A model generated the notes under the pieces. That model was not told the origin of the DNA. It saw only the letters and a list, made by a program, of their open reading frames with translations, and did no database searches. Of a stretch of 64,000 nt of DNA, positions 1-63,162 are shown in pieces; position 1 is the stretch's first letter; each line of letters starts with the position of its first letter. Origin of the DNA: Anthoceros angustus (lineage: Eukaryota > Plantae > Anthocerotophyta); NCBI GenBank assembly GCA_010909165.1, contig MU008154.1, forward strand, positions 682,001 through 746,000. The letters run 5' to 3'. Both the position numbers and the translations under genes were made by a program.

Positions 1-429
1 ATTAAGCATTGATTAGTGTTAATTAATCTAAGTGCTTATGTTAATTAAGCATTGATTAGTGTTAATTAAACATGGTTAGCAATAGCTAAGTGGATAAGCT
101 CAAGTAATATGCTTTGGCATATTCCTTGCATATTATAGTGTATAGCTAAGTGGATAAGCTCAATATTTTGGCATATTCCTTGCATATTATAGTGTATTCT
201 TAGGATATTTTGCATATGCCGATGCCAATAGGATATCTTAGAATATGCCGTGGTCTAGATATATAGACCCTTCCATTGAGGACAAGCTCGATCATAGCTT
301 GTCCTCTAGATATGCAATGCAAGTTGTGAGGAGGCCAAAGCTATGACTCGAGAGCGATGTGTGAGGAATTTGCGTGTTGTTCTCGTGGGAGAGTGTGTTT
401 GTGCCACGACGTGCGAGCTACTCCCTCCT
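1..429 (+). repeat. Partial 5' LTR of the DNMT-gypsy element, with internal 43-bp tandem repeats
   Basis: Colinear with the 3' LTR (attaagcattgattagtgttaattaatctaagtgcttatgtta repeats through gctactccctcc); diverges abruptly at ~430. Confidence 0.85.
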
Positions 430-619
430 ATGCCATGATCTGTGTACACGCATGCAGGCGATGCTAGGCGGGCGCGACAGGCGTTAGCGATGCTAGCGAC
501 GCCAGGGCGAGCTAGGTGACGCTAGGCGCCAGGCGACGCCAGGCTAGGCCGCCAGGCCGCTAGGCGAGGCTACGAGGCAACGCCGCAAGCAGGCAAGGGA
601 CTCAAGTGTGCCCAAGGCT

Positions 620-855
620 TGAGGCCAGAGAGGGACCAAGCCAAGGCCAAGGAGAGAGGAGGAGAAGCCCAAGTCCAAGGCCAAGAGGAGGCGAAGCCCA
701 AGTCCAAGGCCAAGGAGAGGAGGAAGAAGCCCAAGTCCAAGGCCAAGGAGAGAGGAAGAAGCCCAAGTCCAAGGCCAAGGAGAGGAGGCAAGAAGCCCAA
801 GTCCAAGGCCAAGGAGGCGAAGCCCAAGTCCAAGGCCAAGGAGAGGAGGCAAGAA
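620..855. repeat. Minisatellite, ~7 copies of aagcccaagtccaaggccaaggag(agaggaggcaag), preceded by GC-rich gctaggcg/ggcgacgcca repeats (455-600)
   Basis: Visible tandem units of ~24-36 bp. Confidence 0.9.
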
Positions 856-946
856 GGCAGAAGAAGCCCATACCAAGGAGAGGAATGAGGCTCCATGTGG
901 CCTTTTAAGGCCAACCAACCAAGGAGAAACAAGAGTATTTTACCTT

Positions 947-1210
947 GGGCCCTGATTCCAAGGGATAAAGGATAGACATGGGTATGTCATCAGTCCATTG
1001 ATTTCACTTTCTGTCCAAAACTCCTAGTCGGCACCCCATCCAGGTACTGATCCACCCCACGGGTGCTTAACTCTGAGTTCCTATGCCTTTGCTATCCAAC
1101 TCACCCACCCCTCACATTTTTGACCATATATGCAGAGTATTTATGCAATTTTAACATGCATAGATACTTAGAGGTTTCACTAATCACGATCTAAGATAGG
1201 GGTGTGTTAA
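947..1210 (-). mobile_element. Cassandra-like LTR with 5S rRNA-derived core and a degenerate tRNA-Met PBS
   Basis: 1019-1085 (actcctagtcggcaccccatccaggtactgatccaccccacgggtgcttaactctgagttcctatg) aligns by eye with the reverse complement of the 5S rRNA internal control region (acttcccaggaggtcacccatcctagtactactctcgcccaagcacgcttaactgcggagttctgatg). 947-960 reads tggaatcagggccc on minus, resembling the PBS tggtatcagagcc. Confidence 0.6.
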
Positions 1211-1249
1211 CCTTGATTAAGGGTTTGATCTAGCCACTAACCGCCTGGA

Positions 1250-2480
1250 GTGCATGCTCGACACACTCGATCCGGACGGAGCTACCAACCAGAAGTCCAT
1301 CGAGCGAATTCAAGTCCCGACCAAGAGGAGAAGTGCGAACACCGATTTTGGTACCAGAAGGACGGAGGAACCCAAACACAATCAACAATCTTTGAAGGAT
1401 CCGTGAGTGGCAACACACAAGACACGTTAGTGCCGGGACAACTCAAATGGGAAGCGAGGAGGACTTGTCTCTTGGAGTCGCCAAGATGGGAGGAGACAAG
1501 GATCGAATGGAGTTGTTCACGGAGCGGGCACCTTGCTGGAGGACTTCATCGAGAAATGCGTGCGGTGTGTGCGGAGATGGAATTGAAGACCGGATACACG
1601 AAGCGATACGCTTCATCCAAATGCCGAAGTACTTGGGGATGAAGCATTGGCGTGCTATCGCGAAAGGCGAGGCTTGAGCGGTGGAGGACCCGATGAGTAG
1701 CAGTTCAAGCTCCGAAGGAACCGTCTGAGCAGGCGGTGGCACCAGTGGGCACGATCCCATCGAAGAGATGTTTGACATCTTCCTGGAGTTTCCTGCAAGC
1801 ACGGATGAGAAGATCTCCGGTGACACACTTCAAGATGAAGGCGAGATGCGAAGATGGCTTATCAAGAATCGACCGGTTAGTGCGTGACACCAAGATCATG
1901 AGTGACCCGAGATGCCGCGGGCATTGCCATATGCTGCGCATGAAGGTGCAACAAGCGGTGCACACGAAGGGGCAACACTACACCCTCAAGGAAGTGTACG
2001 AGATGGTGACAAGATAGGGCCCGACACTTTCTCGTCTTGTTGCAAGTGATTACTCCCAAAGTAGGAGTGGTGGGCGACATGACCGACGAGGTCGAGTGGA
2101 GGAGCTCGAGACAAGCCAGCCCACAGCCCCAAGAGATGCGTGAGGTGCCGAGGGGCGGACCATTCCCTCATGAGTGCGAGCATGCATTCGGAGGAGTCAA
2201 GGGTGAGGAGCCATGCCCTAGGTGTGAATGCAGGCACAATGAAGCGGCATGTTGGGAGAAGCATCCGAATTGCGGCCTCACGGGTTATCGAGCAACAACC
2301 CGGCCAATGCATGCGTCAACCTCATCCACAAAATCGAAGAGCAAAGGCGCCGTGGAGGAGGCACCGGCGAAGTCCCGTGGACAAAAGAAACGGAAGCATC
2401 AAAGAAGGCGATGGACAGCTACGTGGCACGCCTTGCAAAGCTGGAGAAGTTGGTGCGGAAGGCGAAGATCAAGGAGAGCG
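1250..2480 (+). pseudogene. Gag remnant (frameshifted) with zinc knuckle
   Basis: CPRCECRHNEAACWEKHP at ~2213-2268 (CX2CX3HX4C), located upstream of the protease. Confidence 0.6.
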
Positions 2481-2964
2481 GTTCATCATCGAGGACGAAG
2501 AAGATGAGCACAAGCTTGGATACATGGCGGACGGATCCAAGGGCAGGGGAAACCTCGCTACGAGAAGATAGCTCGGAGGAAGAGGATGTCTTGACACCGG
2601 TCACGGAAGACACGGAAGGAAGCTTGGGATCCTCTTCCGAACCTATGCCAAGATGCCAAAGTCGTTTGAGCCATTGCCAGAACAGCTGTGGAGCAACATC
2701 AAAGTCCAGTGGGCGATGTGGAGAAACCCATGCACAGTTCGGCGGAGACGATGGCACAAAAGCTTGAGATGCCATGTTTGACCTACAAGACATGGGGTTG
2801 AGCGTGAAGGAAGTCGGGGTTTGACTCGGCGGATGTTGACAACCCTTGAAGACGAAGCAAGTGTCACAATGTGCCACAGTGGCAATGATGTCATTCGACC
2901 TCGAGCCAAGCATCTCGTGGAGAAGCGGAATCTTGCCGAGTGGGAGTGGCTTTGGTCAACAATC

Positions 2965-3300
2965 GGAGAGGCACATTGAAATCAATGGATTCGCACCAAG
3001 GAGGTGTTGATTGACACCGAGCACGCCGGTGATCGTTGGAAGAAGAGTGAAGGAAGCGTTGGGTCTCCACCAAGAAAGGTTGAAGGAAACCAAGTGGAAG
3101 ATCCGGACGCATGGGACCACGGAGCATGTGTTGGGGTGACAAGGTACAAGCTGAAGGTTTCATTCAAACCAAGAATGAGACTTCACCTTTGTCGAGGTAC
3201 ACCGCTTGGTCAATCACAGACACTTTTGATGTCTTCTTGGGGACGCTTTGTACAAACACAGAGTCATGGTGGATTTGTGGGAGACAGTCTACTATCGACC
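2965..3300 (+). pseudogene. Retropepsin-type aspartic protease remnant
   Basis: Across frameshifts: (K)EVLIDT[G]ARPVIVGR at ~3001-3045 and TDTFDV(L)LG at ~3215-3242. Confidence 0.7.
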
Positions 3301-3667
3301 AGTGGAGAAGGAGCAAAACCGATGAACGGATTGCCCGCATCCCTCTCTGCATGGCAAGGATCATGAGAACCTCATTGCCACAGCGTCTACCCAGTGTTTG
3401 GCGCCGTAGTGAAGGACACGCCACGTGCTTGAACCTCTTGGCGTGTGTCTAACAACTGACCCGATGGAGGATTTCGGCGAGGAGGAGGAAAACAAGCTAG
3501 GGTTGCAACCACCCTCGGAGGAGGTTCTTCAAGTCACTCGGACATGGTGGCTGTGATGAGCCGTGCAAAAGGCAGGGAGGATGGTGCAAGAGGACCGGTG
3601 CCCTATGAGCCGGAGAACTCTGTAAGTTCTTGCCTAGGGTTGAGCCTGTTTGTGACCTAACACAGTC

Positions 3668-4145
3668 ATCACATGGCGACCTCGGGAAGGCGGCATAGTG
3701 CTCGTGGAACTCTTTGGAGGCATCGAACGGCTTGGCAGTGTGGCATCAAAGTGCGAAGATACGTGCATTGTGACCCGGATCCAAAAGCAAGGATTGTGTC
3801 AGAGCGTAAGAGACTTGATGGGGAGTACCTAACCTCGACGTGGGGAGTCGGTGAAGGGTTTACTGCCGATGGATGTTCGCATGATAGGGTTGTCCCATTT
3901 GAGTTGTCTTGGGCAACCGGTGGACCTTGTCATCGCGGGTTGGGAGTGTCAAGGACTATCCTCTGCAGGCAAGGTCAAGGTCTCAAGGATCCACAGCATT
4001 GTTCTATGACTGATGAGGATCTTGCGCTTGATCCGAAAGGGCAAGAAAGGCCTTGTGGATACATGTTGGAGAATGTGCCATGCATGAGCGTGAAGAAGCA
4101 AGTTCGGAGGACTTTGCCACGATCCGAGGAGTGTTGGGTCGGAGC
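3668..4145 (+). pseudogene. C5 cytosine DNA methyltransferase catalytic domain, motifs I-VI; frameshifted and truncated before motif VIII
   Basis: Motif I GIVLVELFGGI at ~3692-3724; CGIKVRRYVHCDPDPKAR (motif II region); motif IV PVDLVIAGWECQGLSSAG at 3917-3970 with catalytic Cys codon 3947-3949; motif VI GYMLENV at 4057-4077. Confidence 0.9.
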
Positions 4146-4189
4146 TCAAATCTTAACAAAAAGTGTAACATAGGCGGCCTTTTCTAGTA

Positions 4190-4370
4190 GGGTTTGTAGC
4201 CTTTCACGCCATCAATATATCCCACGAATATTAGTTTGTGCTCGAGCGTCAAATTTGCTGCCTTTGGATCATGAAGTCGATGACGCTTCTCTTTGGGAAT
4301 CCATGCATCACCCGAAATCCGAAGATGGGGAGAGAGAGGCTTGTGGCGCCCAAGCCTCAAAGGGAGTCCG
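4190..4370 (-). pseudogene. Copia integrase C-terminal fragment interrupting the DNMT element, next to an assembly N (4372)
   Basis: KLIFVGYIDGVKGYKPY resembles KLLMLGYTEGIKAYKLY of the copia pol elsewhere in this window. Confidence 0.55.
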
Positions 4371-5160
4371 ANATCTTTATTCTGGATGCTTTCTAAGCAA
4401 AGTGATTGCCGGGTTGTTCTCAACATGCATCACCGGGTTGTTTCAATATTTGCAGTAAGCATACCATCTTCTCCATTGCCGGGCTGCATCCTTGCAGATG
4501 CCCTTGTTGGTTGCTTCTCACCGTAATTGCTTCGCGCGATGAACCGGTGGGTTGCTTCGAACCGCAGATGCATTTCACACCGGTACGGTCCACATGCACC
4601 GCCACGCCATCGTGAGTATCCCGCCGGCGGATGCACCCCGCCTGGGCGCCATATGGGTGGCGACCGGAAGTCAAGCCCGCTTTAGCTCCACTAACGGTTT
4701 GCCTCACTCCTTCTAAACAAATTTGGTGTATAACCTTGTGGAACACAATGTACCCATCATTGTTTCTCAACTCGCAGTAGCCTCACGGACACCTACCGGC
4801 AAGACACAGTTGTCAAAAGTCTTGATCGCAGGTGAGTAGACGCGAACGACATTGGGGTTTGCCGTGGTCGCCTTCACCGCAGGGGAAAATTAGCACCTGG
4901 TCATTCTTCTCAACGAAAGTCGCTGCCTCGTCTGGGCCTCACGCCGCCTGGTTTTTTTTTCGGTAGCAGTGAAATTTTAGAGAGAGAATCGGCCTTTTGG
5001 CCATTATTTTACCCAAGATAGTAAAATTCATTACACTATAGTAGAAAACATGCCAAGTGGGGTGGATATGATCTACCATCAAGGTGGAAAAGAGCACTAG
5101 AGTAGAAAACATTTAGCGCTGAGTCGCCACCAACTTCGAAACCAAGAAGGCGGGCTGTGG

Positions 5161-5430
5161 GTGAAGGATTCCGACTCGCATCTCAACAAGAGAAGGCGAG
5201 TTTGGAGGGCAAGGAGAGTGCGAGAGGAAGCGTGCAAGCCATCCGAGCCACCACATGAGTGGTTAACAGCCGAGTTGAAGAGCAACCAACGCCGCCTAAA
5301 GGAGTTGTTGGAGGCATCGCGACATGTGTTTGCTTTCACGCTATGGAGATGGGGAAGTACACCAAAGGGAAGTTCCACATAGAACTAATCAAGAATGAAC
5401 CAAGTGTTCAGAGGCAGGCTCGAAGGCAAG
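5161..5430 (+). pseudogene. Gypsy pre-RT linker; RT, RNaseH and integrase are deleted after it
   Basis: LKELLEASRHVFAFT / MGKYTKGKFHIELIKNEPSVQRQARR is typical of the segment just before gypsy RT; no YxDD or integrase motif follows. Confidence 0.65.
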
Positions 5431-5519
5431 AAGAAAATGACGACAACACCGGGGAGAGTAGTCCACATGAGCCCATGAGGATGTCAAGACAAGCCTCCAC
5501 TCATGGACAAGGTTCATAA

Positions 5520-5573
5520 CCTCCGGACGACATTCCCAAAGGAGATTGGTTTTGTGCACAATGCACTACATGA
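5520..5573 (+). pseudogene. C-terminal half of a PHD finger ending the pol ORF
   Basis: PPDDIPKGDWFCAQCTT-stop matches the PHD tail consensus (P..vP.G.W.C..C). Confidence 0.75.
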
Positions 5574-5636
5574 GGTGCGACGTGTAGTTCTACTAATGAT
5601 AATGTTTTGACTTAGAGTCTCACATTATCGGGGGAT

Positions 5637-6390
5637 TGGTTGCACCTATATCTACAGCAGATTTGTTTGCTTGGTTGTTGGTCGAGGAAGTGCTTATATG
5701 AATTCAAGTGCTTACCTCGACATGATGCGCCGCAGTGTGATACTAATCTGCACTTGGGTTTAGTGTTTGATTAGCATTAATTAATCTAATTACTTATCTT
5801 TAAGTAAGTAATTAGTGTTAATTAATCTAAGTGCTTATGTTAATTAAGCATTGATTAGTGTTAATTAATCTAAGGTGCTTATGTTAATTAAGCATTGATT
5901 AGTGTTAATTAAACATGGTTAGCAATAGCTAAGTGGATAAGCTCAAGTAATATGCTTTGGCATATTCCTTGCATATTATAGTGTATTCTTAGGATACAAT
6001 AGCTAAGTGGATAAGCTCAAGTAATATGCTTTGGCATATTCCTTGCATATTATAGTGTATTCTTAGGATATTTCCGCATATGCCGATGCCAATAGGATAT
6101 CTTAGAATATGCCGATGCTGTGGTCTAGTATATATAGACCCTTCCATTGAGGACAAGCTCGATCATAGCTTGTCCTCTAGATATGCAATGCAAGAGCTGT
6201 TGTGAGGAGGCCAAAGCTATGACTCAGAGATGTGTGAGGAATTTGCGTGTTGTTCGTGGGAGAGTGTGTTTGTGCACACGCAAGCTACTCCCTCCACTGT
6301 TGTTACTGGTGTGCGGGTAACTTGAATCGTATAAGCACTTCCCGACCAACCAAGCAAACAAATCTAATACTGAGATATATAGTGCAACCA
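5637..6390 (+). repeat. 3' LTR (754 bp) of the DNMT-gypsy element
   Basis: TG..CA ends, terminal inverted repeat, preceded by a PPT, internal 43-bp and ~75-bp tandem duplications, matches 1-429. Confidence 0.9.
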
Positions 6391-6429
6391 AGAAGTGCTT
6401 ATATGAATTCAAGTGCTTACCTCGTGCGA

Positions 6430-6843
6430 CCACATGCGATGGGTGGTCCCTCTCGGGTGCACACTTTGGAACTCGATCTAGGTATCCATAGAACCTCCAC
6501 GTAATCAAACAGGGATTCTCTCTTCTTCCCACGGAGGGTCTCCGCCTGTGGTCCCATGCACGATAATCGAGTCCTCAAGCGATTCAAGAAAGCCGCCTGA
6601 GAGCCCCCAATCCGCTGCCACCGTGCTATAGGTGCGACCATACCATTGTTGCGCGCGTCCTCAAGATCTGTGAAAGATGCGCAATGATCTATGACTCCAT
6701 CCTCCAAGTTGGCGTGGGAGACGTGCTCGAAAGTTCGCACAAACGCCTCCGCGTCATCGCCCTTCTTCTTCTCGCCAAATTTGACGTATTGTTGGCAATT
6801 GTGGAGCTGTGGCAGCCCTCCTCCTCCAGTGGCTCCACTCATG
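6430..6843 (-). pseudogene. Retrotransposon gag N-terminal fragment
   Basis: KFGEKKKGDDAEAFVRTFEHVSHAN...FLNR...RESLFDYVE is a retrotransposon-gag-like pattern. Confidence 0.7.
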
Positions 6844-8805: not shown

Positions 8806-9587
8806 ATGTCTTCCTCCTCACCTTCTGATGATGCTCCGAAGCGCACTCGCTCCTGCTAACGATTAGGCGATTTGCTTCACCACATGGGGCAGTGCCTCAA
8901 TTACACCTCGAGTCGCGCACCGCCGGAGAGGTGCCAGAAGGCACGAGGGACGCCTGTAGTGGAAGAGGGAGGTCCGCATCAAGCAAGCGAGGGCATGTGT
9001 TCTCACGCAGCATCAGCCGCCGAGATGGGCGGACCATCTCGGGCCACACCAGTAGAGGAGAATTACTTCTCCAAAACTGCATGCGCTGCTCGCCGCTTCG
9101 AGGCAGGGGAGTACGCCTACTCTGACGATGAAACTCGTCCTGCCACTCCATGGAGGTTTCCACGAGTCTATGATTACACTGAGGAGACCAAAATCGTCAG
9201 CCTTGGGAACTTCAACAATCCTGGGACACCTCTGTGGTACAAGTGCATGTATACCAGGCTTGTGATGAAACGTATCAGGGTTTCCATGTGCAGGGAGTTC
9301 CCTGGTCACGTCGTCAGCCTTTATCTTGAGTACCAAGCTTTATGTGTTTTCTATTTGCCTGCAAATCCACTTCACAAGCATGTTTCCCTAACAGTCAGGT
9401 TACTCCCACTTGCTCTCAAACTCTGTTGCTGTGTGTAGGTTCTGAACAGCGGATCCAGGAGGAAGAAGGACTTGAAACTCTCGAGCTGCATTGTGGAGGC
9501 GGAAGAAACGTAAGACCCCGGATCAGAGAGAGCTTTTCCACCTCGTTGAAGCCGCATGGCAGAATCCTCCGACTCAAGGATAATTGA
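8806..9587 (+). CDS. Antisense accessory ORF of copia-1 (disrupted, possibly spliced)
   Basis: Starts MSSSS. The domain ETKIVSLGNFNNPGTPLWYKCMYTRLVMKRIRVSMCREFPGHVVSLY is homologous to the antisense ORF of copia-2. Confidence 0.65.
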
Positions 9588-9659: not shown

Positions 9660-12600
9660 TTAGGGACTGCTGAGGAAGTCATGCGACCCCCCCATCCCCA
9701 GACTTTTGACATGACGTTCATGTAGGTCTCTGCCAAGTGCCTTCGTTAAAATATCTGCTGGGTTTTCTTGTGTCGGAACATACTCGAGGTTAATCTTGCC
9801 CTCCTTGATGAGGTCACGTATATTGTGATATTCAACCTCGACGTGCTTGGTCCTCGAATGAAAAACCGGATTTTTAGCTAACGCCATTGATCCTTGATTG
9901 TCAGGCTTGATTGTGGTACATGTAGGTAGGTCTATGCCCATCTCGCTGAAAAGAAGCTTGCACCATGTGACCTCCTTAGCAGCAGCAGTCAGCACTTTGT
10001 ATTCTGCTTCCGTGCTAGATAGAGCTACTGTTGGTTGCTTTTTAGATGACCAGCAAATTGGGCCACCTGCCACACTGACAACATAACCTGAAACAGATTT
10101 TCTGGTGTCTATGTCTCCAGCATAGTCAGAGTCGGTATAAACATCAAGGTCTAAGTTCTGTCCAGGTGTAAACTGGTATTTGATGCCCCTGTGAGGTGTT
10201 CCCTTAAGGTGCCTGAACACACGCTTTACGCATGTCCAGTGTTCTTGTCCCGGGTTCTCCACGAATTGTGAAAGAACTCTTGTAGAGTAAGCAACTTCCA
10301 GCCTTGTAGTGTTAGCAGCATAAATGAGTTTGCCAACACCCTGCCTGTAGGGAATAAGGGCCATCTTCTGTTTTTCTGCATCTGTCTGTGGTGACATCTG
10401 CTTGCTTAGCTTCAGACCACTAGGTAGGGGTGTTGCAGCAGGTTTAGCATCCTTCAGCCCTAAGTGTTCTGCACTGTCGAGAAGGTATCGTGGCTGTGTG
10501 AGTGTAATAACCCGCTTTGTCCTGTTGCGCTGTATGTGAATACCAAGGCAACTCTCAAGTGCACCAAGGTTCGACATCTTAAACTTCGTGGCCAGCACGT
10601 TTGTTATTTGGGTGATAAACTTCGAGTTGTTGCTGGACAGTATCAAGTCATCAACATACACTGCCAGGTAACACACTACATCACCTTTCCTGTAAATGTA
10701 CAGACTGCCATCTGCCTTGCTTTTGACGAAGCCTAAGGCTAACAACTCCTCATCTAGAACTTCATTCCACGCCATAGCAGACTGCTTCAGCCCATATAAC
10801 GTTTTGATGAGTTTTAGGACATGATCTTCTTTCCCCTTAACCTCATAGCCTGGAGGCTGTTGCATATAAATTTCTGTGTCAAGCTTGCCGTTGAGGAAAG
10901 CCGTCTTCACGTCGAACATTTGCAGTTCATAGTCTTTGTACGCTGATACTGCACATAATGCTCGCAGGGTTGCTATCTTCACCACAGGGTCGAAAGTCTC
11001 AAGATAGTCCAGCCCTGGTACTTGGGAAAACCCTCGAGCTACCAGGCGGGCCTTATATCTGTCGAACGTGCCATCAGCCTTCACTTTCAGCTTAAACACC
11101 CACTTGCAAGAAACCATTTTGCATCCTGGAGGTAACTTTGCTAGCTCCCATGTTCCATTTTCGATTAAGGAATCATATTCGGACTATTTAGCCTTCTTCC
11201 ACTCTGCACTATCAGGCCTGCTCAATGCCTCTTCATAGGACTGTGGCTCTATGGGATCGAGAGCAATTGCAGCATGTGCCCTAGCAGAACGAAAGTCTGG
11301 AGCTTGATAATAGTCAGGAGCTCGTCTTTCTCGAGTGGGATAACGTGGTTCTTGTGATGGGGCTATTGCAGGTTCAGGCTGGGTTTTAACATGATCATCC
11401 TCATGTGCTTCAGCTTGATCATCCTCAACCTCAGAGACAGCATCTGGAGCTTTGGGCTCTGGAGGATGGTGGTCCTGCAAATTATCTGGCTGATCTGGCA
11501 AAGTTTCGCCGGTCAGGCATAGCAGGTTGTGGATGTTCATCATCATATTCTTTTCCGACTGAGAAGTTGTTCCCTCCTGCAGGAGCGGCATCCTGGAGAG
11601 CGGGAGCCTGAGTGCCATGGTCAGTGAGATCAAAGTGAGACACATCGGCCAGAGGATCATCATCATCTGCAGAGGTTGAAAGGTCTGGAGCATTCTGAAC
11701 TCCTCCCACTGACGCCCAAGTGCGTGTCTCGTCAAATGTAACACTTCGAGCATAGATGACCTTGTTGGAGGGTACATCATATAGCTTGTAAGCTTTTATC
11801 CCCTCCGTGTAACCTAGCATCAACAACTTGCGAGCCTTGTTCTGAAACTTCTTTCGTTTCTCTTTAGGAATGAAGGCGTACGCAAGACATCCGAAAGTCC
11901 TCAAGTGAAGTATTGAAGGCTTCCGTCCTGTAAAGGCTTCATAGGGTGTCATCCCAACAACTGAATTTGTGGGCAGCCTGTTGCGAAGGTAGGTTGCGGT
12001 CATGAGAGCTCCAAGATGTAAGGAAAACTGAGCTGCAGAAGTAAAGAGGAGATTGCCTCCTAAATGATTCATGTGCCTCTGCGACTCCATCTCAGGAGTG
12101 TAGACAACTGTGAGTTGTCGTCCTATGCCTTCAGCTAGGCAGTAGTCATGGAATTCCTTAGAGGTAAATTCACCCCCATTGTCAGACCGAAGTGTCTTCA
12201 AAGACTTCCCTGTCCATCTCTCAACATATTTGATATACTGTTTGAAGTAGTTAAAGCATTGGCTTTTGTTCTGCAGGATATAGGTGGTGACAAATCTGGT
12301 CTTGTCATCGGTGAACGTCAGAAAGTATCGTCCACCACCTATGGATGCTTGTGAGAGAGGGCCACACAGGTCAGTATGTACGAGCTCAAGAATGTCTGCA
12401 GCTCGGTGAGGGGCCTTATTTCCTGGCGGCCAGCCGCTTTTGACAACACACACACGCTCACAACAGGTAGGCGCTCAAAGGGCCTATCTGTCCATCTTGA
12501 CATGTATCACTGCATACTAACTCGCAGCTTGGCTGTATGAGGGTGACCTAGGCGTGCATGCCCCAACTTAGCTTTTTGATCTGCGTGCAGGCTTGGGAGA

Positions 12601-14015
12601 CGCCTGCAAGATGGGACTGCCATCTCCACTGTATGTAGACCTAAATGCATCATGGTCTGATGACCCATAGGCAAGTATCTTCCTATGATCATAAGCGTCT
12701 ATCACCTGGCATTCTGTCCTAGTGAACAAAACATGACTGTTATTATCAGCATTCAGCCTTCTAACTGATATGAGATTTCTTGTCATGTCTGGCACGTAAT
12801 ACACATCCTGCAATGTGAGGGTGACTCCAGATGGAACTGACAAGTCTATCGTGCCACGACCAGGAGATACTAGGGATCTATCATCACCTAGGTACACATA
12901 CTGATCCTTAACTGGTCTGTATGTCTTGTATGCATTTCTGTCAAAACAGATATGCGCAATAGCGCCTGTATCTAGATACCACTTAACAAATGGTCTAACA
13001 TCAACCTTGGATGACAGGCATGTAGGGAGCAAGAGTGGACTAGCAAACTCCCTTGTCCCAACGGTAAGGGCAGATGGAGTGTTTTGCTTTTTGACCACCA
13101 CGTGACCTTCAAAGATCGGACCCTCCTTGAGGAACCCGTGATTGCTTCTTGCGACACCACGCTCCCAAAGGACTGAGAATTTTGGCACCAATGGCAAGTA
13201 CCTGACTTTTTACTCTTCTTGTTAGAGTTGGTGGCAGCAGAGTTGCTTGAGCCTGCAGCAGGAGCTCCTTGCGAGCCTCCTCTGTTGGAACGAGAAGAAC
13301 TTGCTCCTCCTCGTCCTTGTGACTGGTATCTCCCACTTCCTCTCCCACGTCCAGATGTGTACAAAGCCTGCTGTTTGCCTGAACGTTTCTGGTTGCCCTT
13401 AGAGGCTTCTTCTTCCAGCAAAACTCCAACAAACTCAGCAAAGCTTGTTTCTAGCAGTGTCACTTTAGCAGCTTGTGCTAACTTAGTCACTAGCGAGGGA
13501 CCTGTGTGTGAATAAAATTCGACTGTGACTCCGCAATGTAGAGCATCGAACATGGACAGCTGTTTGTCCTTCATGGTTTCCCCTGAGGCTTCTTCTAACC
13601 TAGAGGCAAGTGTTCTGAATACTCCTATGTGTTTTTCAATGGAATCTCCATCCTTCATCTTCAAGTTATGGAGACTGCGCATTGCTGCCATGACAGAGGC
13701 GTCATTTCTTCCAGAAAACAGGTCTCGCAAACGTGTCCAAATCTCCTCAGCAGTCTTGGCCCCTCCAGTCTGTCTCAACATCTCAGATGTTAGCCCAGAC
13801 CGGATCAGGAACATAGCAGCATCATTTTTGACCTGCCACGCCTCAGCTTCGGATCCTTCAGACAAAGGTTTGGTCTCGATGCCCGTAGCAACTTTCCACA
13901 ACCTTCTGTTTTGCAAAGCACCTTGCATCCGGATGACCCAGATGTCATAATCAGTCCCGTTGAATCTGTCCTCTTTCCGGAACCCATCTCCAGCAATACT
14001 GGCTGTTTCTGACAT
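9660..14015 (-). CDS. copia-1 gag-pol polyprotein (several frameshifts, one stop)
   Basis: gag FNGTDYDIW; protease WYLDTGAIAHIC; HARLGHP; integrase LELVHTDLCGP..LRSDNGGEF; RT KARLVARGFSQ..YVDD; RNaseH YTDSDYAGD..SSTEAEY..ADILTKAL. Confidence 0.95.
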
Positions 14016-14198
14016 GTTGAAAATATTGTCAAACTTCGTTGTGTTGTCAGGTTCGGGTCCCGATTCAAATCGTGGATGTGATTCGGTATCGATCGTGATC
14101 GTGAACAGGTCAAGGATCGTATTGCCTTCGTGTTCTTCCTTCCTACGCGAGGCATAGGGCATGCTCACATGCAACAAAGGGAACTAAATGATGTCTAA

Positions 14199-14735
14199 TC
14201 ACAGAATGTGAGCAGGGTAAGCATTTCCTGCCATTCCTAATTCTGCCAATTGCAGCGTGTCTTGCTGTGCTAGACGTCTTTCTATTTTATTGTTTCTAGA
14301 CTCCCATCTATTAAAGGAGTATGTAGCACAAGAGGGACAGGAGTTAGGTGTATCAAACCTATGTCTCCTACTTGTATTGACAACCTTCCTGCATGCAACT
14401 CCTCGTGAGATGGGGTTAGCAAGCAGCTGTGGCTTCAACAGGGTCAGAAGCTTAAAATCCAAGTGAGAAATCTGCTCTTTCAAATCTTGTAAGTCAACGT
14501 TAGCAGCTATCACCTTTCTGCCTATTGATTTGCAGTTCCTGTCGATATGCTGCTCATGTGACTCAAGTCTGGTCACAAGTTGTGTGACTCCTGTGTGTGG
14601 TGTGACCTGCGTTGTTAGGAAAGCTCTGGGCTGGCCGTTACCGTCAAACGCACGTTGCACACGTACTTCAGGCAGATTCAAAGGATTTCTGGCTGTAGGA
14701 GCAAATCCCAAGTGCCTCTCTTCAGGATACAGCAC
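14199..14735 (-). CDS. Extra sense ORF (178 aa) in the copia-1 5' leader, unknown function
   Basis: Open frame between PBS and gag, with a heptad-like stretch (LQDLKEQISHL) and CPSC; no recognised homology. Confidence 0.4.
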   Translation of the reverse strand: MLYPEERHLGFAPTARNPLNLPEVRVQRAFDGNGQPRAFLTTQVTPHTGVTQLVTRLESHEQHIDRNCKSIGRKVIAANVDLQDLKEQISHLDFKLLTLLKPQLLANPISRGVACRKVVNTSRRHRFDTPNSCPSCATYSFNRWESRNNKIERRLAQQDTLQLAELGMAGNAYPAHIL

Positions 14736-15286
14736 TTCAAGGATTGAATCAAAAGCTTCATGCGATTACATTGCATGAAAAGTGGCGAGCGATTCACGTC
14801 CACCCGATAGCTCTAAAGAGTTGTTCAAGTGTTAGGGATCACATGCTTGCCCCGCGCGATTCTGCCTTTGTGGAATCCTCAGGCGCGCCTGTTGGCCTTG
14901 ATTATGTGCCATCTACAATGGCCTGAACTCTAGTTGCCAGAATGCTTTCTAAATGCATTCTGAATTTGTTTTGTGTAAATTACTTTAATTTCTTCATGCA
15001 ATTTGCCAAATCTGGCAGTTGTCCTAGTGTGCCTTTGCCAGAATTGCTCAAAGTAGCAGTCTGATACAAGACGCACTAGGATGCACTCCTAGATCTGCAA
15101 ACTTGTATGATTCTTTTAAAGAAAACAACTCAAAGTTCAGTTCTTGATTTTTATTTGCTTTTCTTGCTTAAAACCTATTTTCTAAACAAGAAATAGCCAA
15201 AGATACATGTTTGTGCATATCTCTCCATGCACAATTTAATGTGCATTCTCTAGAATGCAATCCACATAGTCATAGCTCTGATACCA

Positions 15287-16179: not shown

Positions 16180-19100
16180 TGTGATGCTTTTGATCACCGG
16201 AAGGTCTCAGCTTATGGATCATCTAATTAAGATCTTTTCCGTCTTCACACAAATATTGGTGTTGCCCAAACCCACTTGGCTTCACAGGCTCCAGACGCCT
16301 CTGCAAAACAGATTGACAAAGCCAAGTTATGGCATGCCCGTTTAGGTCATCCCCATAGTGCTAAGCTGCAGAAGCTAGCTACTAGTGATGTTTATTATGA
16401 TGGCAAGATAGGCACTCTGCCACCCTTACCTTTGTGTGAAGCGTGTGTGTTTTCCAAGCGGCACCAGGCAGCTTTCAAGAACAAGACTCCACATCGAGCT
16501 TCAGAATTTCTTGAATTGGTTCACACTGATATATGTGGGCCTCTCTCACAGCCTTCCCTTGGTGGCGGTCGATATTTCCTTACGTTCACTGACGACAAAA
16601 CACGTTTTGTTATAGCCTACGTCCTGAAGGCTAAGAGTGAATGCTTCTTTCTTTTCAAAGACTATTTGAAGTATGTAGAGAGATGGATTGGAAAACAATT
16701 AAAGACCCTTCGATCTGACAATGGTGGTGAATACACATCTAATGAGTTTCAAGCCTATTGTGCAAATGAAGGGATAGGCAGACAACTTACCGTTGTTTAC
16801 ACGCCACAACAGAATGGTGTAGTCGAACGCTTGAATCTCACCCTTCAAGAGATGATTTCATCTTTGCTACATCAAGCTTCTCTGCCTCTTCCTTATTGGG
16901 CTAAGGCTCTTATGACAGCTGTTTACCTTACAAACAGGTTGCCTACTACTGCTGTAGACGGACAGACACCTTTTGAAGCTTTCTTTGGCATAAAACCTTC
17001 TCTCCAACATCTTCGCACATTTGGATGCATTGCTTATGCTTTTATTCCCAAGGAGAAGCGGAAGAAGCTATCTGCAAAGGCACAAAGACTTCTCATGATC
17101 GGTTATACTGAAGGGATCAAGGCATATAAACTCTATGATGCCTCCCGTGATAAGGTGGTCTACTCACGTAGTGTTACTTTTGACGAAGGGCGCTTTTGGA
17201 CAACAGTGGGAGCTGCTCCCACCTATGAGGAGGATGATTACCTTTCTGCCCTCCCTGATGTCACTATCTTTGATGATTCTACTCTCGAGTCGATTGCTCC
17301 TGCAGGGGGGGAAGAGCAGCAAAATGATGAGCAGGCAGTAGAGATAGAAACTGTTGATTTTGCTGATCAGCAGCAGCAACCTCCAATTGACATTCGGCCA
17401 TATCCACCTGATCCAGCTGATGATGATGCTGATGATCCGACGACTGGCGCATCTCCGGCGTGATTTTGATGATGTTCAAGACTCGAACAAGCTCCAAAAC
17501 GTCGTTATCCTACAAGGGAACGACGTGCTCCAGATTATTATCAAGCTCCAGAATTTAGAGCAACTTCTTCCCATGTTCACGTACATTCTGCCCTGGATCC
17601 CATAGAGCCACAAACTTTCCAGGAAGCCTTGAGCAGACCTGATCACAAAGAGTGGGAGAAGGTAATAAAATCAGAGTATGACTCATTGATTGAGAATGGC
17701 ACATGGGAGATAGCCAAACTGCCACCAGGCAGAAAAATGTCTCGTGCAAATGGGTGTTTAAGCTAAAAGTCAAGGTTGATGGTACCTTTGATAGGTATAA
17801 GGCCCGGCTTGTTGCGAGAGGTTTCTCTCAAGTTCCAGGACTTGACTATTTTGAGACTTTCGCTCCAGTTGTAAAGCTAGCAACCCTGCGCACCATATGT
17901 GCCATATCAACTTACAAAGATTATGAGCTGCAGATGTTTGATGTCAAAACTGCATTTCTTAATGGAAAGCTTGATACTGAAATCTATATGCAGCAACCTC
18001 CTGGTTATGAGGTAAAGGGCAAAGAAGAATATGCTTGCAAACTAATTAAATGCCTGTACAGACTGAAATAGTCAGCTATGAAGTGGAATGAAGAGCTGGA
18101 CAGAGAACTACTAGCTCTAGGATTCACTAAAAGCAATGCTGATGTGTAAACTATCTGGATTTCGAAACTCCCTGTTGGATTGTGTCTTTGAGTGATTTTT
18201 TGTTTTTTTCTGCTAAGTTTGGTGTCAAAACGAGCTAGGTTGTCAGTAGGAAGGGATATTTATACTAGAAAGTGTCCTTGACCTATGAGTTTTTGGGTTG
18301 TTTCGGGTTGAATAATAATCGGTCCTTAGACTATGAACTCGATACTCCTTGGCCTTTGGTCTAATATCAATATCTAATAGAAAGTCTATATATGTGGGAG
18401 GGGGTCCCCATATTTGGCGTAGGTCCAGGCTAGAGGTCGAACCAACCGAAGTTGAACTGGTGTGTGGTCGCCGATCGTGGGACTATGTTTCAAGACGGTT
18501 GGCGAACCGGGCGGTCGTGGAAGGAAGGAGCGGTCGCGAAGAAGAAGTGGTAGCGGTTTGCCATCGTAGAGTTTCCGGGAAATATAACCCTAAGGGAACT
18601 CGAAGGCAGGGGCGGGCCGGGTAGCTCCAGACGATCCCCGACTGTGGCACGAGCTCGCACGAGGTCAGAAGGGCAGCGTGGCGGGAGCTCGCGATTCTCG
18701 GAAGGAAGAAACCCCGGGGATTGACCAAGTTGGAGATTCCGAGGCAGTTATCAGCAATCGAGGCGTGGGCGTGAGGGTTTTGCAGAGCATGGCGCCCAAG
18801 GTTGCAGCAGAATTAACGCCTAATGGCCAAATATGGACCATTGGAGGGTCCGAGGTGGAGGATTGGTGAGGGAGCTGGGACTTGGGATCATGGAAAACAA
18901 AGGAGAGTTTATGGGAGGATTTTCCAGATAAACGAGGAAGGAGGACCCAAAAGAAGAAAGGACGAAGGGCCAACCAAATCGGAGGGGAGTGCGGAGATAA
19001 CATGGGAGTAGTGGCATCCTAGGAATAGAACTTTGGATAGGATGCCATCTTGGACCTAAGGCCCGAAATTGTAGGGCGCCTTCGCTCAGCTTTTAGGACG

Positions 19101-21129
19101 AAAGTGGCTATGACTCAAAGAATTGTATAAAGGGGCTTGGTGCCCCTCACATCGAGCAACTCTGGTTGAGATCCCCACGCCGCCTGTGGCTGTGGAGACG
19201 TCCGATTGACAGAGGTGGTGTGCGCGAGACGCCCTAGGGGTGGTAGAGCTTGCTGCAACCGGGGAGGAGGGGTGATAGAGCAATCTTGGCCGACAAAGGA
19301 GGAGGAAACCAAGGGATTGGGGGGCGGTCCGGAGCTTGCTCGTAACGCCCGCCAGGACGCCTGGGGTTCTTCTTTCCTTCACCCTTGTTCCCGTAGTTGT
19401 GTTCAAATTGAGAGAGAAGTGTTGAGTGGATGGTTGGAAGCTGGGCGAATTGAGGGAGAGAGAGAGAGAGAAGATTGGGTGAAGGAGTGATTGAACATCA
19501 GATGGCGAGGTGTAAGAGGAGTTGAGAAGGGAATTAATTGAGAGACTAGGAGATTTGTGTGGATCCAAAATAATCCAAACCGTGTGGAAGTGTGCACAAG
19601 AGGAAACAGATTCCTTGTGGAATTGTGTGAGGGTGGCGCCTTTGTGTGTGTGGAGAACGGTTGAGAGGATTGGTCTAGGAATTGTGTGTGCATGAAGTGT
19701 GGAGTGCCAAATAAAGTCCGATCAGTGAGCACGGTAGCGTGCGGGGATCGCGCTGGCGCCGAGATGAGTTGCTAGGGTTTGGTGGGACCCACCTCGTAGT
19801 CAAGCCACCGGTAGTGGAATGAGTGGAATAGATTTGTCGTGGAATAGATTTTGGTCGTGGAATGAGACCGGGTGGAATGAGATTGGTAGTTGGACAAGTC
19901 GGGAGGTAGTAGTAGTTGAGTAGATAGGTAAGAGGAGTGTAAGTCCCGACTTAGGCAAAGGTCGAGTGATAGAAGTTAGCGCCTCGGCACAAACCATTCC
20001 CTTGGGAGCGAATCCTAGGCCTACAACGACATTGAGGGTGAATGTGGACCTCACGGTGTCCCTAGACACAAATTCACACTCCACATGATGGCAGCTTATA
20101 CATATACAGAAATGGAGACATCGTGTGTTACTTAGCTGTTTACGTCGATGATCTCATTCTCTCAGCAATAGCCAGGCTTACATTGACAAGATAACAGATC
20201 TCCTGGCCAAAAGGTTCAAAATGTCAAATCTAGGCCCACTTCAGAGTTGCCTTGGCATCCATATTCAAAGGAATCGACTTACCAAGGTCATAACTTTGAC
20301 ACAACCTAGATATTTGCTGGACAGTGCTGAACAGTTTGGCCTCAAGGACGCCAAAGTTGCAGCCACACCTCTTCCTAGTGGCTTGAAGCTCAGCAAGAGC
20401 ATGTCACATGTCACACAGGCCGACAAAGATCAGATGGTTAACGTCCCATATAGACAAGGAGTTGGAAAACTCATATATGCTACGAACACAACCAGACCTG
20501 AGGTAGCCTATGCTACTAGTATCTTGTCCCAATACTTGGAAAATCCTGGACAGGAACATTGGAGCTGTGTTAAACGAGTATTCAGGTACCTAAAAGGGAT
20601 TGCACACAAAGGTATAAAGTACTCTTACCAATTAGGAGCACCTCTGGACTTGGAAGTTTACACAGACTCTGACTATGCCGGAGATATGGATATGTTTCAG
20701 GCTATGTGGTTGGTGTTGTAGGAGGACCCATATCTGGTCCGGCAAGAAACAGCCAACAATGGCTCTGTCCAGCACCGAGGCAGAATATTGATGTTGATAG
20801 CAGCAGCCAAAGAAGTAGTTTGGTGTAAGCTGTTGTTCTCAGAGCTAGGGATTGACCTTCCAACCTGCACAATAATAAACACTGACAACCAAGGATCGAT
20901 GGCCCTTGCTAAAAATCCCGTCTTCCATTCAAGGACTAAGCATGTGGAAGTAGACTATCATTACATCCGGGAGTTAGTAGTAGCAGGGACAATCAGACTT
21001 CAATATGTTCCAACACAGGACAATCCAGCAGATGTCCTAACAAAAGCACTTGGACGTGAACTACATGAGAAGCATGTGAAAGGTTTAGGACTAGGAGAAT
21101 CAAGTACTTTCCTAGCTAATCCCACCTAA
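16180..21129 (+). pseudogene. copia-2 pol (integrase, RT, RNaseH) with stops, frameshifts and a solo-LTR insertion
   Basis: LWHARLGHP..CEAC; VHTDICGP; SDNGGEY; KARLVARGF; YVDD at ~20141; YTDSDYAGD; ADVLTKAL. Confidence 0.95.
18145..20085. mobile_element. Solo LTR (1941 bp), probably gypsy
   Basis: TG..CA ends flanked by a perfect 5-bp TSD tgatg (18140-18144, 20086-20090); removing it restores RT SNADGSLY. Confidence 0.9.
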
Positions 21130-21205: not shown

Positions 21206-21985
21206 TCATTCGAATCGTAGTCTGTCAAGGTGTGAAATGGAATCGGAGTAGCCTGAGGACATGTAGTCCTCAGGGGGAACTTTTCTCTCCACCAACTTGC
21301 TCAGAGACATCTGGACATGCGAATGATAATGTTCGACAAAGTGGGAGCTAATTGGCAAACAATGGAGAATGGTCAGTGGGCTTACGATAATAGCTAATGA
21401 CATGGTAAAGGAACTCTCCGCAATTGCATACTTGGGTTCTCTTCATGACTTACCAGTTTTGCGGCAGCGATACCATAGGGGGGAGTTTGGACAGGCAATC
21501 GACCCCAACGTCACAATTGTGGTGTCTCCGATGAGGCTCCCGTGAGGGAACTTCACTGACAGGTCAGGTTTCTTCTCTCCTTTCTCATACATGGCAACGG
21601 GACCAGAAAAGGAATAATCTGGCAATGGCTGGGGGACAAAAGACACATGATTAGTATATGCAGCAGCGCTCGGCCTGGAAGAAAAACCCATGTTTGATGC
21701 GAGCGCCCGAGCAGCCGCAGAGAGCGAAAGAGACGCCGCCTCCACCTTCCTTCCAAGAGCAGCAGCAGCCGTAGATGATGCCTCCACTTTCCTTGCAACT
21801 AACACAGCCCTTGTTGTGCCCCGAGGGCGGCCACGACCTCTCTTAATTGGTGTTGAGCTTGATGGCGCCTCAATCTTTCTTGCAGACAAGGCAGTTGTCC
21901 TAGAAATCTTCTTTCCGACAGAGCGGCCCTTGCTATCTCTCAGGTAACGGCGAGCGGCCCTCACCTCCTTAGAGGAAGAAGACAT
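21206..21985 (-). CDS. Antisense accessory ORF of copia-2: AT-hook plus a Cys/Trp-containing domain
   Basis: MSSSSKEV...PIKRGRGRPRG (AT-hook, ~21820-21843)...DTTIVTLGSIACPNSPLWYRCRKTG[fs]VMKRTQVCNCGEFLYHVISYY. Confidence 0.75.
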
Positions 21986-22249
21986 GTTGATCAGCTTACA
22001 TTCAAGCAGCTCTCTAACAAGGATGCTGAGTGTAAAAAGGGTGAACAACGTTATCACGCACCTGGTCTTTAATGGCTTTTGGGCTGCGTGGTCCATTAAG
22101 TGCCGAGCGTAAGAGTTTTAGGGCATAACGCAGGTAGAAACGAGGCACTCACAGCTGAGAGTTGGCATTGGCATCTGAGCTGGAGCGAAGGACTGGAGCT
22201 AGTAGTCAGACTGTGAAATAAATCTCCCGAAATGATCAACAAGTGGGAG

Positions 22250-22510
22250 TGAAGAAGTATAGTGTGTTGAGCATTTACGTGAATCAGGTTGCAATAATCA
22301 ACATACGTAATCATAAGGGTAGCTGAAAATAAATGTTAGTAAGTACTTGTTCATTAGGGTTGTGTCTCATGGCGAACCGTCATGTCGTTTTAAGTTCTAG
22401 TTTAAGTAATGTCTTTTCATAATAAGCATTTAAGCCTTTTTCTTGATATACAATGATATATGTAATTACTAAATGAGTAATTGATCTACACTTATTCCTC
22501 TAATTTGTTA
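22250..22510 (+). repeat. copia-2 3' LTR
   Basis: Begins TG right after the PPT; ends aatttgtta versus aattgtca in copia-1. Confidence 0.85.
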
Positions 22511-23125
22511 GATGCTTTCTTCGCGAAGTCCTTAATGAACCTCCTATAGTATCCTACCAAACCTATGAAAGCACACACCTGCTTCATGAATTGCCGCAAG
22601 AAATGTCGAAATATGGTATTCACCACTTGTTGAAAAGTAGCTGGGGCGTTGCACAACGCCAAAGGCAGCTTTGAGTAAGCATAAGTGCCCCAATCTGTCG
22701 TGAATGTGGTCTTGTCCTAATCCTCCTTCCTTAGCGAAATTTGATTGTAGCCTGAGTAACCATCGAGAAAGCTATACATCTCATGTCCAACACACTTTCC
22801 ATGAAAGGCAAGGGGTGGTGGTCCTTCTTCGTCACTTTGTTGAGGTTCCTGAAGTCTTGACACAGCCATACCTCTCCTTGCTACTTTTTGGGTACAATTA
22901 CGATCGGGGCTACCCACTCACTGGTAAGCAGAGGGTAGATCACTTTGGCCTCCAAGTACTGGCCTAGCTAGTTCTTGACCACCATAGAATACTTGGGTTT
23001 ATCCTATACTTTGATTCATCGGGATATTGCCTTCTTTCAAATCGATTCGATGTATCCCCAATTCTTCCAGGATTCCTGTCATGTCAGTAATCTTGAAGGC
23101 AAACACATCGACATATTCAAATAGG
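22511..23125 (-). pseudogene. Gypsy reverse transcriptase fragment (duplicated at ~33207-33745)
   Basis: FEYVDVFAF..HRIDLKEG; EWVAPIVIVPKK; YSFLDGYSGYNQI; LCNAPATFQ; GYYRRFIKDFAK. Confidence 0.9.
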
Positions 23126-30562: not shown

Positions 30563-33500
30563 TATTGCTTGGATGTTTGTGCTCTATAATGTATTTAAAA
30601 TTGGTCAATATGGATTATTTTGTGAAAATATATTCAACCGTGGTGGTTGCTCAATATCCTAGGCAATTGTTAGGAGTTCTGAGGTGGAACCCATTGATGA
30701 GCATACGACCACTTATTGTTTGATAGATGTTCAATTTTATAGACCACTTATTGTTTGATAGATGTTCAATTTTATAGACCACTTATTGTTTGATAGATGT
30801 TCAATTTTATAGACCACTTATTGTTTAGATGTTCAATTTTTCACCACTTATTGTTTGATAGATGTTCAATTTCACCACTTATTGTTTGATAGATGTTCAA
30901 TTTTATAGACCACTTATTGTTTGATAGATGTTCAATTTTACGAGCACTTATTGTTTGATAGATGTTCAATTTTATACACCACTTATTGTTTGATAGATCG
31001 AGGTGGAGCGTGAGGATGAGCAACTTAACAAACCACTTCTTGTTAGGCTTTCCTAAGGTGCAACGTTGCGGTGGGCAACTCAACCAACCACTTAGATGAT
31101 GGCCTTTATAGATGACCTTGAATACTAGATACTATCAGGATATTTGATATTTCCTTTCTAGCATCTTCAAATTGTTTTTTCTTGTGATAGGTACTATAAA
31201 TGGATATTTGATATTTCCTTTATGCACGTTCAAGTTGTTTTTCTTGTACATACTATTAATGGATATATGATATTTCCTTTCCTGTTCTAATTGTTTTCTT
31301 GTGGTAGCGATATTATATTTATATTTGGTATTTCTTGTGGTATCTTTGAATTTCTTTCACTATTTATTGGTCCATCTTAGTAACAAAATGGCATGGTTGT
31401 GCAACTAATTAAGTCTCTCCTTGCCTTCTTAAATCACTTTGTTGAGGTTCCCAAGTCTTGACACACATACCTCTCCTTGCTACTTTTTGGGTACAATTAC
31501 GTGGGCTACCCACTCCGTAAGAGGGTAGATCACTTTGGCCTCCAAGTACTGGCCTAGCTAGTTCTTGACCACCATAGAATACTTGGGGTTTATCCTATAC
31601 TTTGATTCTTCAGGGATATTGCCTTCTTAATGTACAACATGTCAATTGAGAACTAAACTACACCAAATCTTGTAGGAATAGAAGTTGATGTGGGAAATAG
31701 TTACCACGTGATTAGACAAAGGCATTTGTTTGGTTCCTTGATGAACTTTGTGGCGTGAACTAAGCAATGTCATGCCTAACACTTCAGCCCAAATGTGGTA
31801 ACATGGTCATAGTTTTAACCTTATTAATGTTATGAATTGCGTGCTAAACTTACGTCAACTTAAGGCTGGCCTTGATTGCCACGAACCTTTATGTTGAAGC
31901 TCACGATGGCCTCCCAAAGCGCTTCTTACTAAGGGCTGTCCATGGCATTCAAACCTTCATCAAAAGGAGCCATTCAGATATCTAGTTTGGCACGAAATCT
32001 TTATCAAGGTGCCCAATATTGCAAGGTGCAAGCGGCAATTAGGAGACCCCAATACTTTAGTGTAGATGAGACCATCCAATTTGTACACCTTTGACATAAA
32101 GAACTACTCATCATATTATGATTTCAAGGACTATCAAACTACGTGAGGCGAAAACAAACCTAGACTTGTAGGATAAGAGGTTAGTCGTGAGAGACTTTGC
32201 GTTGTGGAATAGCGGGGTTTGACCTACTTTGGGCTTTTCTTGTGAATACATAAGCATTGGGATTCTCATCTTATCTCCATTTTCAAATTTCATGGCCAAA
32301 GCGGAAAAAAAAATTACTACAATAATATAAATTAAACCACTAGCACAACAAAATTAAGGCATAATAAAGCAAAAAAGAATAAAACATAAAACATAAAACA
32401 AAACAAAACCTCAAACAACAGTACAAAACAATAGAAGAACCTTGTGCATCTTTTGAATCTTTAGACATTTGGCTTGGGCTCGATATCGATCCCCGCCACC
32501 TCACGTGGTAACACTTTGCTCAGGCGGCGGTGCTGTGTCATTGAACGAGGTATGGTCTTATGACATTGTTGCACCATGGCTGCAAAGGAGTTCTCAATAG
32601 GCTAGAGGTCGATGTGGTGGTGCTCGAGCCTTCAGTGAAAGGATCTGTAGAGACCGCTGATTATGACTTTTCACTCCATGGATGATCGCCTCCAGTTATG
32701 AAGGCTAGGTCTATGTTACAGACGACTCGGTTATATATCACGATCTTACACCATTGCAATGGAAGATTAAGAAGGAGAAGTTACCTTGAGGAATTTTCGT
32801 CTTTTTAGTCACGCTTTTCTTTCATGGGGATGAATTTGTGGTGTTTAGCCCTGTTCATGCATTTCATTAACATTATTGATTGATTGAAGATTATTTGTCT
32901 TGTTTGAATTTTACCTTTGCATTCGTCTGACCATTTTACAATAATCTATGGTTGCCATATTTCAATCCTATAGATCAGTCCTTAGTGGACTTGAATAAAT
33001 TTCTTCTTCTTCCTCTTCATCTTCTTCATTTGTTCTTCTTCTTGTTCTTCTTTTCATCTTCTTCTCGCATCTTCTTCTTCTTCCATTATTAATTGTATTT
33101 AGAAAACTATGAAACTTCTTCACCTCTAGGTATTGTATGTATACATGTTTAGTATAGTGATTATTTTCACTAGCATAGTAAATAAAAATTATTTATTTAA
33201 TTATTTATGAAAGCACACACCGCTTCATGAATTGCAAGAAATGTCAAATATGGTATTCACCACTTGTTGAAAAGTAGTTACGCCAAAGGCTTTGAGTAAG
33301 CATAAGTGCCCCAACTCGTGAATGTGGTCTTGTCCTAATCCTCCTTCCTTAGCGAAATTTGATTGTAGCCCGAGTAACCATCGAAAGCTATACATCTCAT
33401 GTCCAACACACTTTCCATGAAAGGCAAGGGGTGGTGGTCCTTCTTCGTCACTTTGTTGAGGTTCCTGAAGTCTTGACACAGCCATACCTCTCCTTGCTAC

Positions 33501-63126: not shown

Positions 63127-63162
63127 TGTTGGCGGAGACGCCAACAGGTGAGAAGGGGAGTA

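Follow-up and report, generated by a model that had tools for sequence, protein, structure and literature searches.

At the left end of the window, by which we mean the whole 64-kb stretch of DNA analyzed, there is a retroelement of Gypsy type that carries part of a C5 cytosine methyltransferase. To judge from the sequence, the methyltransferase is a genuine domain of which the N-terminal half is present, and the evidence supports its position after a protease and ahead of the first part of a reverse transcriptase (RT). The explanation we prefer, and regard as reasonably likely, is an internally deleted Gypsy-type element with half a methyltransferase in pol, a likely relative of KnitGypsy-Dnmt3, residing probably in a bryophyte, whose intact family members would likely methylate their cDNA. 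Reading from 5′ to 3′, the order is repeat A1, a leader array, a gag-like region, a protease-like domain, an acidic linker, the methyltransferase, a foreign stretch, the RT start, a PHD-like motif and the 3′ repeats (Table 1).

Table 1. Features of the methyltransferase-carrying element, numbered from the first base of the window.
Feature	Position	Strand	Basis
5′ repeat A1, truncated on the left by the window edge	1..428	+	alignment to 5843-6295
Tandem array in leader, 7 copies of ~32-nt units	636..882	+	TRF score 302
Gag-like region, frameshifted	1240..2764	+	position and motif, by eye
Aspartic-protease-like domain	2972..3274	+	profile of 17 retroelement proteases
N-terminal half of C5 cytosine methyltransferase (motifs I, II, IV, VI), DNMT3-like, Glu-Cys for Pro-Cys	3665..4139	+	profile, PDB, Atlas, shuffle tests
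Internal Copia integrase/SH3 fragment, antisense, without LTRs, in place of motifs VIII-X	4187..4770	-	PF25597 E 0.0024
Ty3/Gypsy RT, first ~50 residues	5278..5423	+	rank 5 of 64 blocks, outscored by four genuine RT copies; none of 300 shuffles as good
PHD-finger-like C-terminal motif IPKGDWFCAQC	5520..5564	+	by eye; too short for Pfam
3′ LTR-like unit with TG...CA ends, holding B1 (5687-5719) and A2 (5843-6295)	5637..6390	+	
Repeat B2, 33/33 identical to B1 (5687-5719)	6392..6424	+	hairpin with 6310-6342

Motifs and origin of the methyltransferase

Three catalytic motifs are recognized on the plus strand. Motif I (ELFGGI) is at 3707-3724, motif IV (AGWECQ) at 3935-3952 and motif VI (ENV) at 4069-4077. 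The earlier note, made from the letters alone, had them in the right order and spacing, and this is borne out. The distance from the motif I Phe to the motif IV Cys is 78 codons, compared to 70 in DNMT3A and 69 in a profile built from 81 phage C5 methyltransferases; from that Cys to ENV it is ~41 codons, compared to 38 in the profile. Among the ~127,900 ungapped windows scored against the phage profile, motifs I, IV and VI rank 6, 1 and 4. The seed of the profile was chosen for its match to motif IV, but motifs I and VI played no role in that choice, and by arithmetic, each of these two would land in this 600-nt interval by chance 2-3 times in 100. The domain was also said to be split by frameshifts, as indeed it is, with eight segments delineated by eye, 7 frame changes among them and all three plus frames in use.

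When all 2041 six-frame pieces are scored with the phage profile, the one at 3833-4006, which contains motif IV, comes out on top (E 3.8e-5, 20.0 bits, with the next-best piece at 4.6 bits). A frameshift-aware search with PF00145 had been suggested as a check. The single-frame pieces, at 5-38 residues, are short, and match neither PF00145 nor any NCBIfam model, which by the earlier note's own standard would formally count against the domain, but a frameshift-aware alignment to the phage profile scores 29.5 bits, where the other 63 blocks of the window reach at most 14.6 and none of 300 shuffles does as well. Taken by themselves, motifs I-II fall short of significance (equaled in 56 of 300 shuffles), and the stretch from after motif IV to motif VI is marginal (11 of 300). 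In the Atlas, 28 of the 30 matches of piece 3833-4006 carry PF00145 (best 0.92). A tblastn comparison to phages gave two matches, both cytosine methyltransferases, but at E 7.

The catalytic Cys, at 3947, is kept, and the Pro that normally precedes it is replaced by Glu, both as originally read. The Glu codon is GAG, two substitutions from any Pro codon, and the replacement is probably real rather than noise; it may impair catalysis. Beyond motif VI the domain stops. Motifs VIII, IX and X were not found in 4140-5640, where 58 of 100 shuffles score equally well. As assembled, this copy codes for no working methyltransferase. The absence of these motifs was overlooked at first reading, as were the antisense Copia fragment and the near-total loss of RT, RNase H and integrase described below.

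Several observations tentatively suggest DNMT3 as the origin of the domain. All eight PDB matches of piece 3833-4006 are DNMT3A, although they are weak (E 0.2-0.84) and represent essentially one protein, and in a further PDB search, both matches are DNMT3A again. The segment GIKVRRYV is identical to DNMT3A GIQVDRYI at 5 of 8 positions and is unlike the phage consensus. Motifs I, IV and VI are in unrearranged order, and not in the DRM order, in which VI-X precede I-V. There is no intron-sized gap within the methyltransferase stretch. The PDB returned nothing relevant for 3661-4170, 3665-3754, the protease piece or the RT piece.

A bacterial, phage or giant-virus methyltransferase, acquired independently of Gypsy-Dnmt3, would be a different source, and we consider it the least probable of the alternatives. 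Motif IV does score well on the phage profile; 5 of the 81 phage enzymes have IVAGWPCQ at motif IV, similar to VIAGWECQ in the window, and there is one phage cluster among the Atlas clusters matched. Against it, the PDB matches are solely to DNMT3A with no bacterial enzyme among them, and the motif II stretch, which is DNMT3A-like, does badly against the phage profile.

Broader searches turned up no relatives. Searching 1.84 billion representatives with 3661-4170 using phmmer gave no match, and none of the 38 candidates from a word search with 3833-4006 was related. A metagenome scan produced seven loci, all in stop-ridden frames, which were rejected as chance matches. The domain was found in none of 14 stretches in a viral scan and in none of the 211 Gypsy proteins compared. 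Within the window, neither the element nor its domain recurs.

The surrounding element and the state of the copy

The expected Ty3/Gypsy order of gag, aspartic protease and RT is present, if weakly, with gag assigned by eye only. The gag-like region has no Pfam match; a C-x2-C-x3-H-x4-C knuckle is visible by eye in the translation at 2214-2252. The protease-like domain is collinear with profile positions 9-109 and scores 11.9 bits, ranking fifth of 64 blocks, and neither the PDB nor the Atlas assigns it to any family. The claim that the methyltransferase lies between protease and RT is supported. The protease-like domain is equaled by 4 of 300 shuffles and the RT start by none of 300, but both are weak against the window as a whole, their scores falling within its noise level. 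A tyrosine recombinase and no aspartic protease would be the alternative design (DIRS/PAT); this copy has the protease-like domain and lacks the stretch in which either an integrase or a recombinase would be expected.

The RT ends ~100 nt upstream of IPKGDWFCAQC, which by eye resembles the consensus of a PHD finger. The space between 5423 and 5520 is too small for the RT core, RNase H and integrase, so all three have been lost, and indeed, tblastn of 211 Gypsy proteins against 1-6500 found none of them. With most of these enzymes missing, the copy is unable to work alone. The methylation activity that the earlier note thought possible for the family is unsupported for this copy, which lacks half of the enzyme in addition to nearly all of the RT, RNase H and integrase. 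The order in the parent would have been Gag-protease-DNMT-RT-RNase H-integrase-PHD.

The foreign stretch is an internal piece of a Copia element in opposite orientation. Its 4187-4342 portion matches the window's own Copia proteins by tblastn with E 1e-7, with a further weak match at 4657-4770, and the sole N of the window, at 4372, falls inside it. Short motifs resembling CACTA ends lie close to the boundaries of this foreign DNA (4177-4192, 4930-4970 and 5032-5112). We rejected them as CACTA ends flanking the insert; there are 3 matches in the window to the one pattern examined, a number equaled by 3 of 100 shuffles, and their orientation does not enclose the insert.

The presence of this unrelated piece, and of the N, makes the locus a mosaic, and it might be asked whether the methyltransferase fragment is just as accidental, through a one-off capture or an assembly chimera, rather than a trait of the family. 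That the domain is truncated and that no second copy or relative of it turned up would be in keeping with such an accident. However, the methyltransferase is on the same strand as the protease, directly continuous with it through the acidic linker, and intronless. It also has nearly the base composition of the gag-protease region and not that of the insert: GC is 0.53 in the methyltransferase, 0.54 in gag-protease and 0.49 in the Copia insert, and CHG observed/expected is 0.60, 0.61 and 0.82, respectively. Finally, a Gypsy pol with Dnmt3 together with such a repeat layout is a published design. We therefore hold an accidental origin to be improbable.

The two A copies provide a measure of age. 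A1 and A2 (5843-6295) have 417 matches and 2 substitutions in 419 aligned bases, along with 14 indel events. So few substitutions relative to indels make a recent insertion likely, and much of the frameshifting may be assembly noise. Four other repeat pairs in the window show 1.3-2.5 indel events per 100 nt and fewer substitutions. In the methyltransferase, the frame changes (7 over 475 nt, or ~1.5 per 100 nt) are close to the repeat-pair rate, and so give no sign of decay; they appear to be long-read errors. Two Copia frames in the window are open over 410 and 507 codons, from which it follows that the noise is uneven and that some of the breaks are possibly decay.

Carried to its extreme, this argument would have the element intact and young in the real genome, with a noisy long-read assembly to blame for all of its broken frames, its Copia piece and the gap in RT. 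The great excess of indels over substitutions between young repeats, the N within the insert and the lack of any ends of its own on the Copia piece could be cited for that. But a loss on the kilobase scale or an antisense insertion is beyond base-level noise, and chimeric joins would be needed at two or three places, making it an unlikely account. We continue with the reading that the element is internally deleted. As assembled, the copy is dead in cis, and if the junctions are real, its latest move took place in trans, the copy being a non-autonomous derivative.

Terminal repeats

The element had been described as bounded by LTRs, with an LTR at 5637-6390, which is only partly right. A1 does match 5843-6295 but then diverges, and it is without the last 95 bases of that unit. 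What is seen is an arrangement of the form A-coding-B-A-B, in which B is just 33 nt and 96 nt from A2, and in which A1 is cut at the window edge. In this they seem closer to KnitGypsy-Dnmt3, with its DIRS-like layout, than to two plain LTRs. As A1 runs off the left edge of the window, ordinary LTRs that have been damaged keep some probability.

The 3′ LTR-like unit is preceded by a 6-nt purine run (5630-5635), and inverted repeats of ~75 nt are found at its ends (5636-5709 and 6320-6391, 83%). The region 6300-6430, chosen after the repeats had been seen, folds at -39.5 kcal/mol (z -5.1, 0 of 200 shuffles). A match to MIR395 at 6314-6420 (E 0.18, 23.9 bits vs 56) was rejected as reflecting the hairpin only. 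Of primer sites, only that for Met-tRNA was sought after A1, and there is none. A fold-back at the 3′ end that primes reverse transcription without a tRNA is a speculative substitute. The inverted part of the 3′ repeats recalls the internal complementary region of DIRS1 in the account given by PMC3266345.

In the interval following the leader array, there are two stretches at 5S-like spacing on the minus strand (980-1110). They resemble box A and box C of an internal promoter of the 5S type. A 5S-like reading of ~980-1110 was rejected, there being no 5S match in Rfam.

Host lineage, relatives and possible function

The host lineage was approached through a second Gypsy integrase at 61830-62624, which belongs to another element 55 kb from the methyltransferase element. 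The best three among its matches listed are Riccia sorocarpa proteins (74, 71 and 69% identical). An organism is named in 29 of the 120 matches listed; 15 are liverwort and 14 are fern (47-52%), with no alga or seed plant among those 29. In a quick tree of 118 of the 120 listed rows, the integrase is sister to 6 Riccia rows with SH-aLRT 87, apart from the fern rows, at the end of a long branch (0.39). Among the cluster members of 10 unnamed integrases, no plant is named. The proximity of this neighboring integrase to Riccia makes a bryophyte host fairly probable. The RT of the Copia elements, with its best database relative at 49%, is uninformative on the host. The lack of any closer relative indicates that the host's own proteins are apparently missing from the database.

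A KnitGypsy-Dnmt3 type element residing in a streptophyte alga would leave the published range unchanged. The missing Copia RT relatives above 49%, the long end branch of the integrase and the sparse representation of algal TE proteins in the database (those of hornworts are thinly named as well) are all compatible with that. The organism-named integrase matches listed are nonetheless liverwort or fern without exception, the best three being Riccia, and we find an algal host unlikely. Depletion of CG and CHG across the window (0.74 and 0.69) suits plants, yet it suits Klebsormidium too.

The most similar known element is KnitGypsy-Dnmt3 of Klebsormidium nitens, a Gypsy element with a Dnmt3-like domain (de Mendoza et al. 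2018, PMC5890265). The available text of that paper gives the A-coding-B-A-B arrangement for DIRS and states it for KnitGypsy-Dnmt3. In both elements, a Gypsy pol houses a Dnmt3-like domain that is free of introns and of motif rearrangement, with frame continuity masked here by the noisy copy, and the repeats of the present element can be read as the same DIRS-like A-coding-B-A-B arrangement. The present element differs in its probable bryophyte host, its Glu-Cys motif IV, its PHD-like remnant and the truncation of the copy, as well as in the shortness of B (33 nt), the 75-nt inverted repeat and the 3′ hairpin. In its workings it is like Gypsy-DNMT3, to which it probably belongs.

Other retroelements with C5 methyltransferases, SymbioDIRS-Dnmt3 and SymbioLINE-Dnmt, are described from dinoflagellates in the same text (PMC5890265). 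SymbioDIRS shares the A-coding-B-A-B repeats, but these elements are either DIRS with a tyrosine recombinase or LINEs, and do not have the aspartic protease design. EpiLTRs are LTR elements carrying a DNMT and a chromatin reader; as far as their preprint text goes (bioRxiv 10.64898/2026.05.21.726589), they differ in having a DNMT of a DNMT4-sister clade, with DAM and a chromodomain, and in occurring in Euglena and Cymbomonas. There, "streptophytes (Gypsy-DNMT3)" count as an acquisition of their own, and the passages covered mention no land plant; "streptophytes" is also the wording in PMC12344493, with citation of the 2018 work. The stand-alone DNMT3 genes of non-flowering plants have the same unrearranged DNMT3-type domain (Yaari et al. 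2019, PMC6453930), but with a C-terminal DUF3444 and outside pol. They are the likely ultimate donor.

The accessible text of PMC11982613, 10.1101/2021.11.30.470311 and PMC8616336 contains no land-plant retro-DNMT. In the literature covered, which was mostly outside the subscription journals, Gypsy-DNMT3 is from Klebsormidium only and from no land plant, although supplements might add hosts. The range extension that the earlier note held out, should the host prove to be a land plant, is probable, with the caution that the host is judged indirectly, from a neighboring element's integrase.

What an intact member would do can be proposed from the position of the domain and from Ty3/Gypsy biology. 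The methyltransferase would be translated within the polyprotein, packaged in the particle and freed by the element's protease, so that cDNA would be the first DNA it meets. By analogy with SymbioDIRS-Dnmt3, whose domains carry out de novo CG methylation in yeast in the account of PMC5890265, there are modest odds that intact members would methylate their cDNA de novo at CG, and a new insertion would then arrive already marked. The Klebsormidium domain produced no methylation in yeast in the same account, a result its authors termed inconclusive. The odds that the PHD-like reader would direct integration are likewise modest. The CG observed/expected ratio of this element (0.81) falls between those of Copia (0.50-0.60) and the other Gypsy (0.96), and therefore is no footprint of self-methylation.

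A more ambitious proposal, which we offer tentatively and place somewhat short of an even chance, is that this is a recently mobile, liverwort-like Gypsy-DNMT3 lineage with the Glu-Cys motif, a C-terminal PHD reader, DIRS-like split repeats and tRNA-free priming from a 3′ fold-back. If so, the Klebsormidium design would represent an ancestral streptophyte element that is still active in land plants. A young bryophyte family would mean a transposon that methylates itself in plants for which transformation and methylome tools exist, and the question raised in 2018 of what the methyltransferase does for the element would become testable there. The present copy by itself cannot answer that question.

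The remainder of the window is also rich in repeats. The second Ty3/Gypsy element (52900-64000, +) is frameshifted and without a methyltransferase, with repeats at 53236-54058 and 63172-64000 (77%). Two Copia elements with long open frames are opposed to each other at 9663-15286 (-) and 16231-20718 (+), and the former has a perfect Met-tRNA primer site at 15275-15286. Fragments of RT are found at ~22500-23100, 31400 and 33300-33700 on the minus strand. From 24700 to 52400, units of 4-9 kb, some of them inverted, form a complex array with 35-nt satellites and TTC runs. Two open reading frames, at 8860-9435 (+) and 21446-22117 (-), match no convincing Pfam family and have in common the motif (T/K)(K/T)IV(S/T)LG...P..PLWY.C; they possibly encode an undescribed repeat-borne protein.
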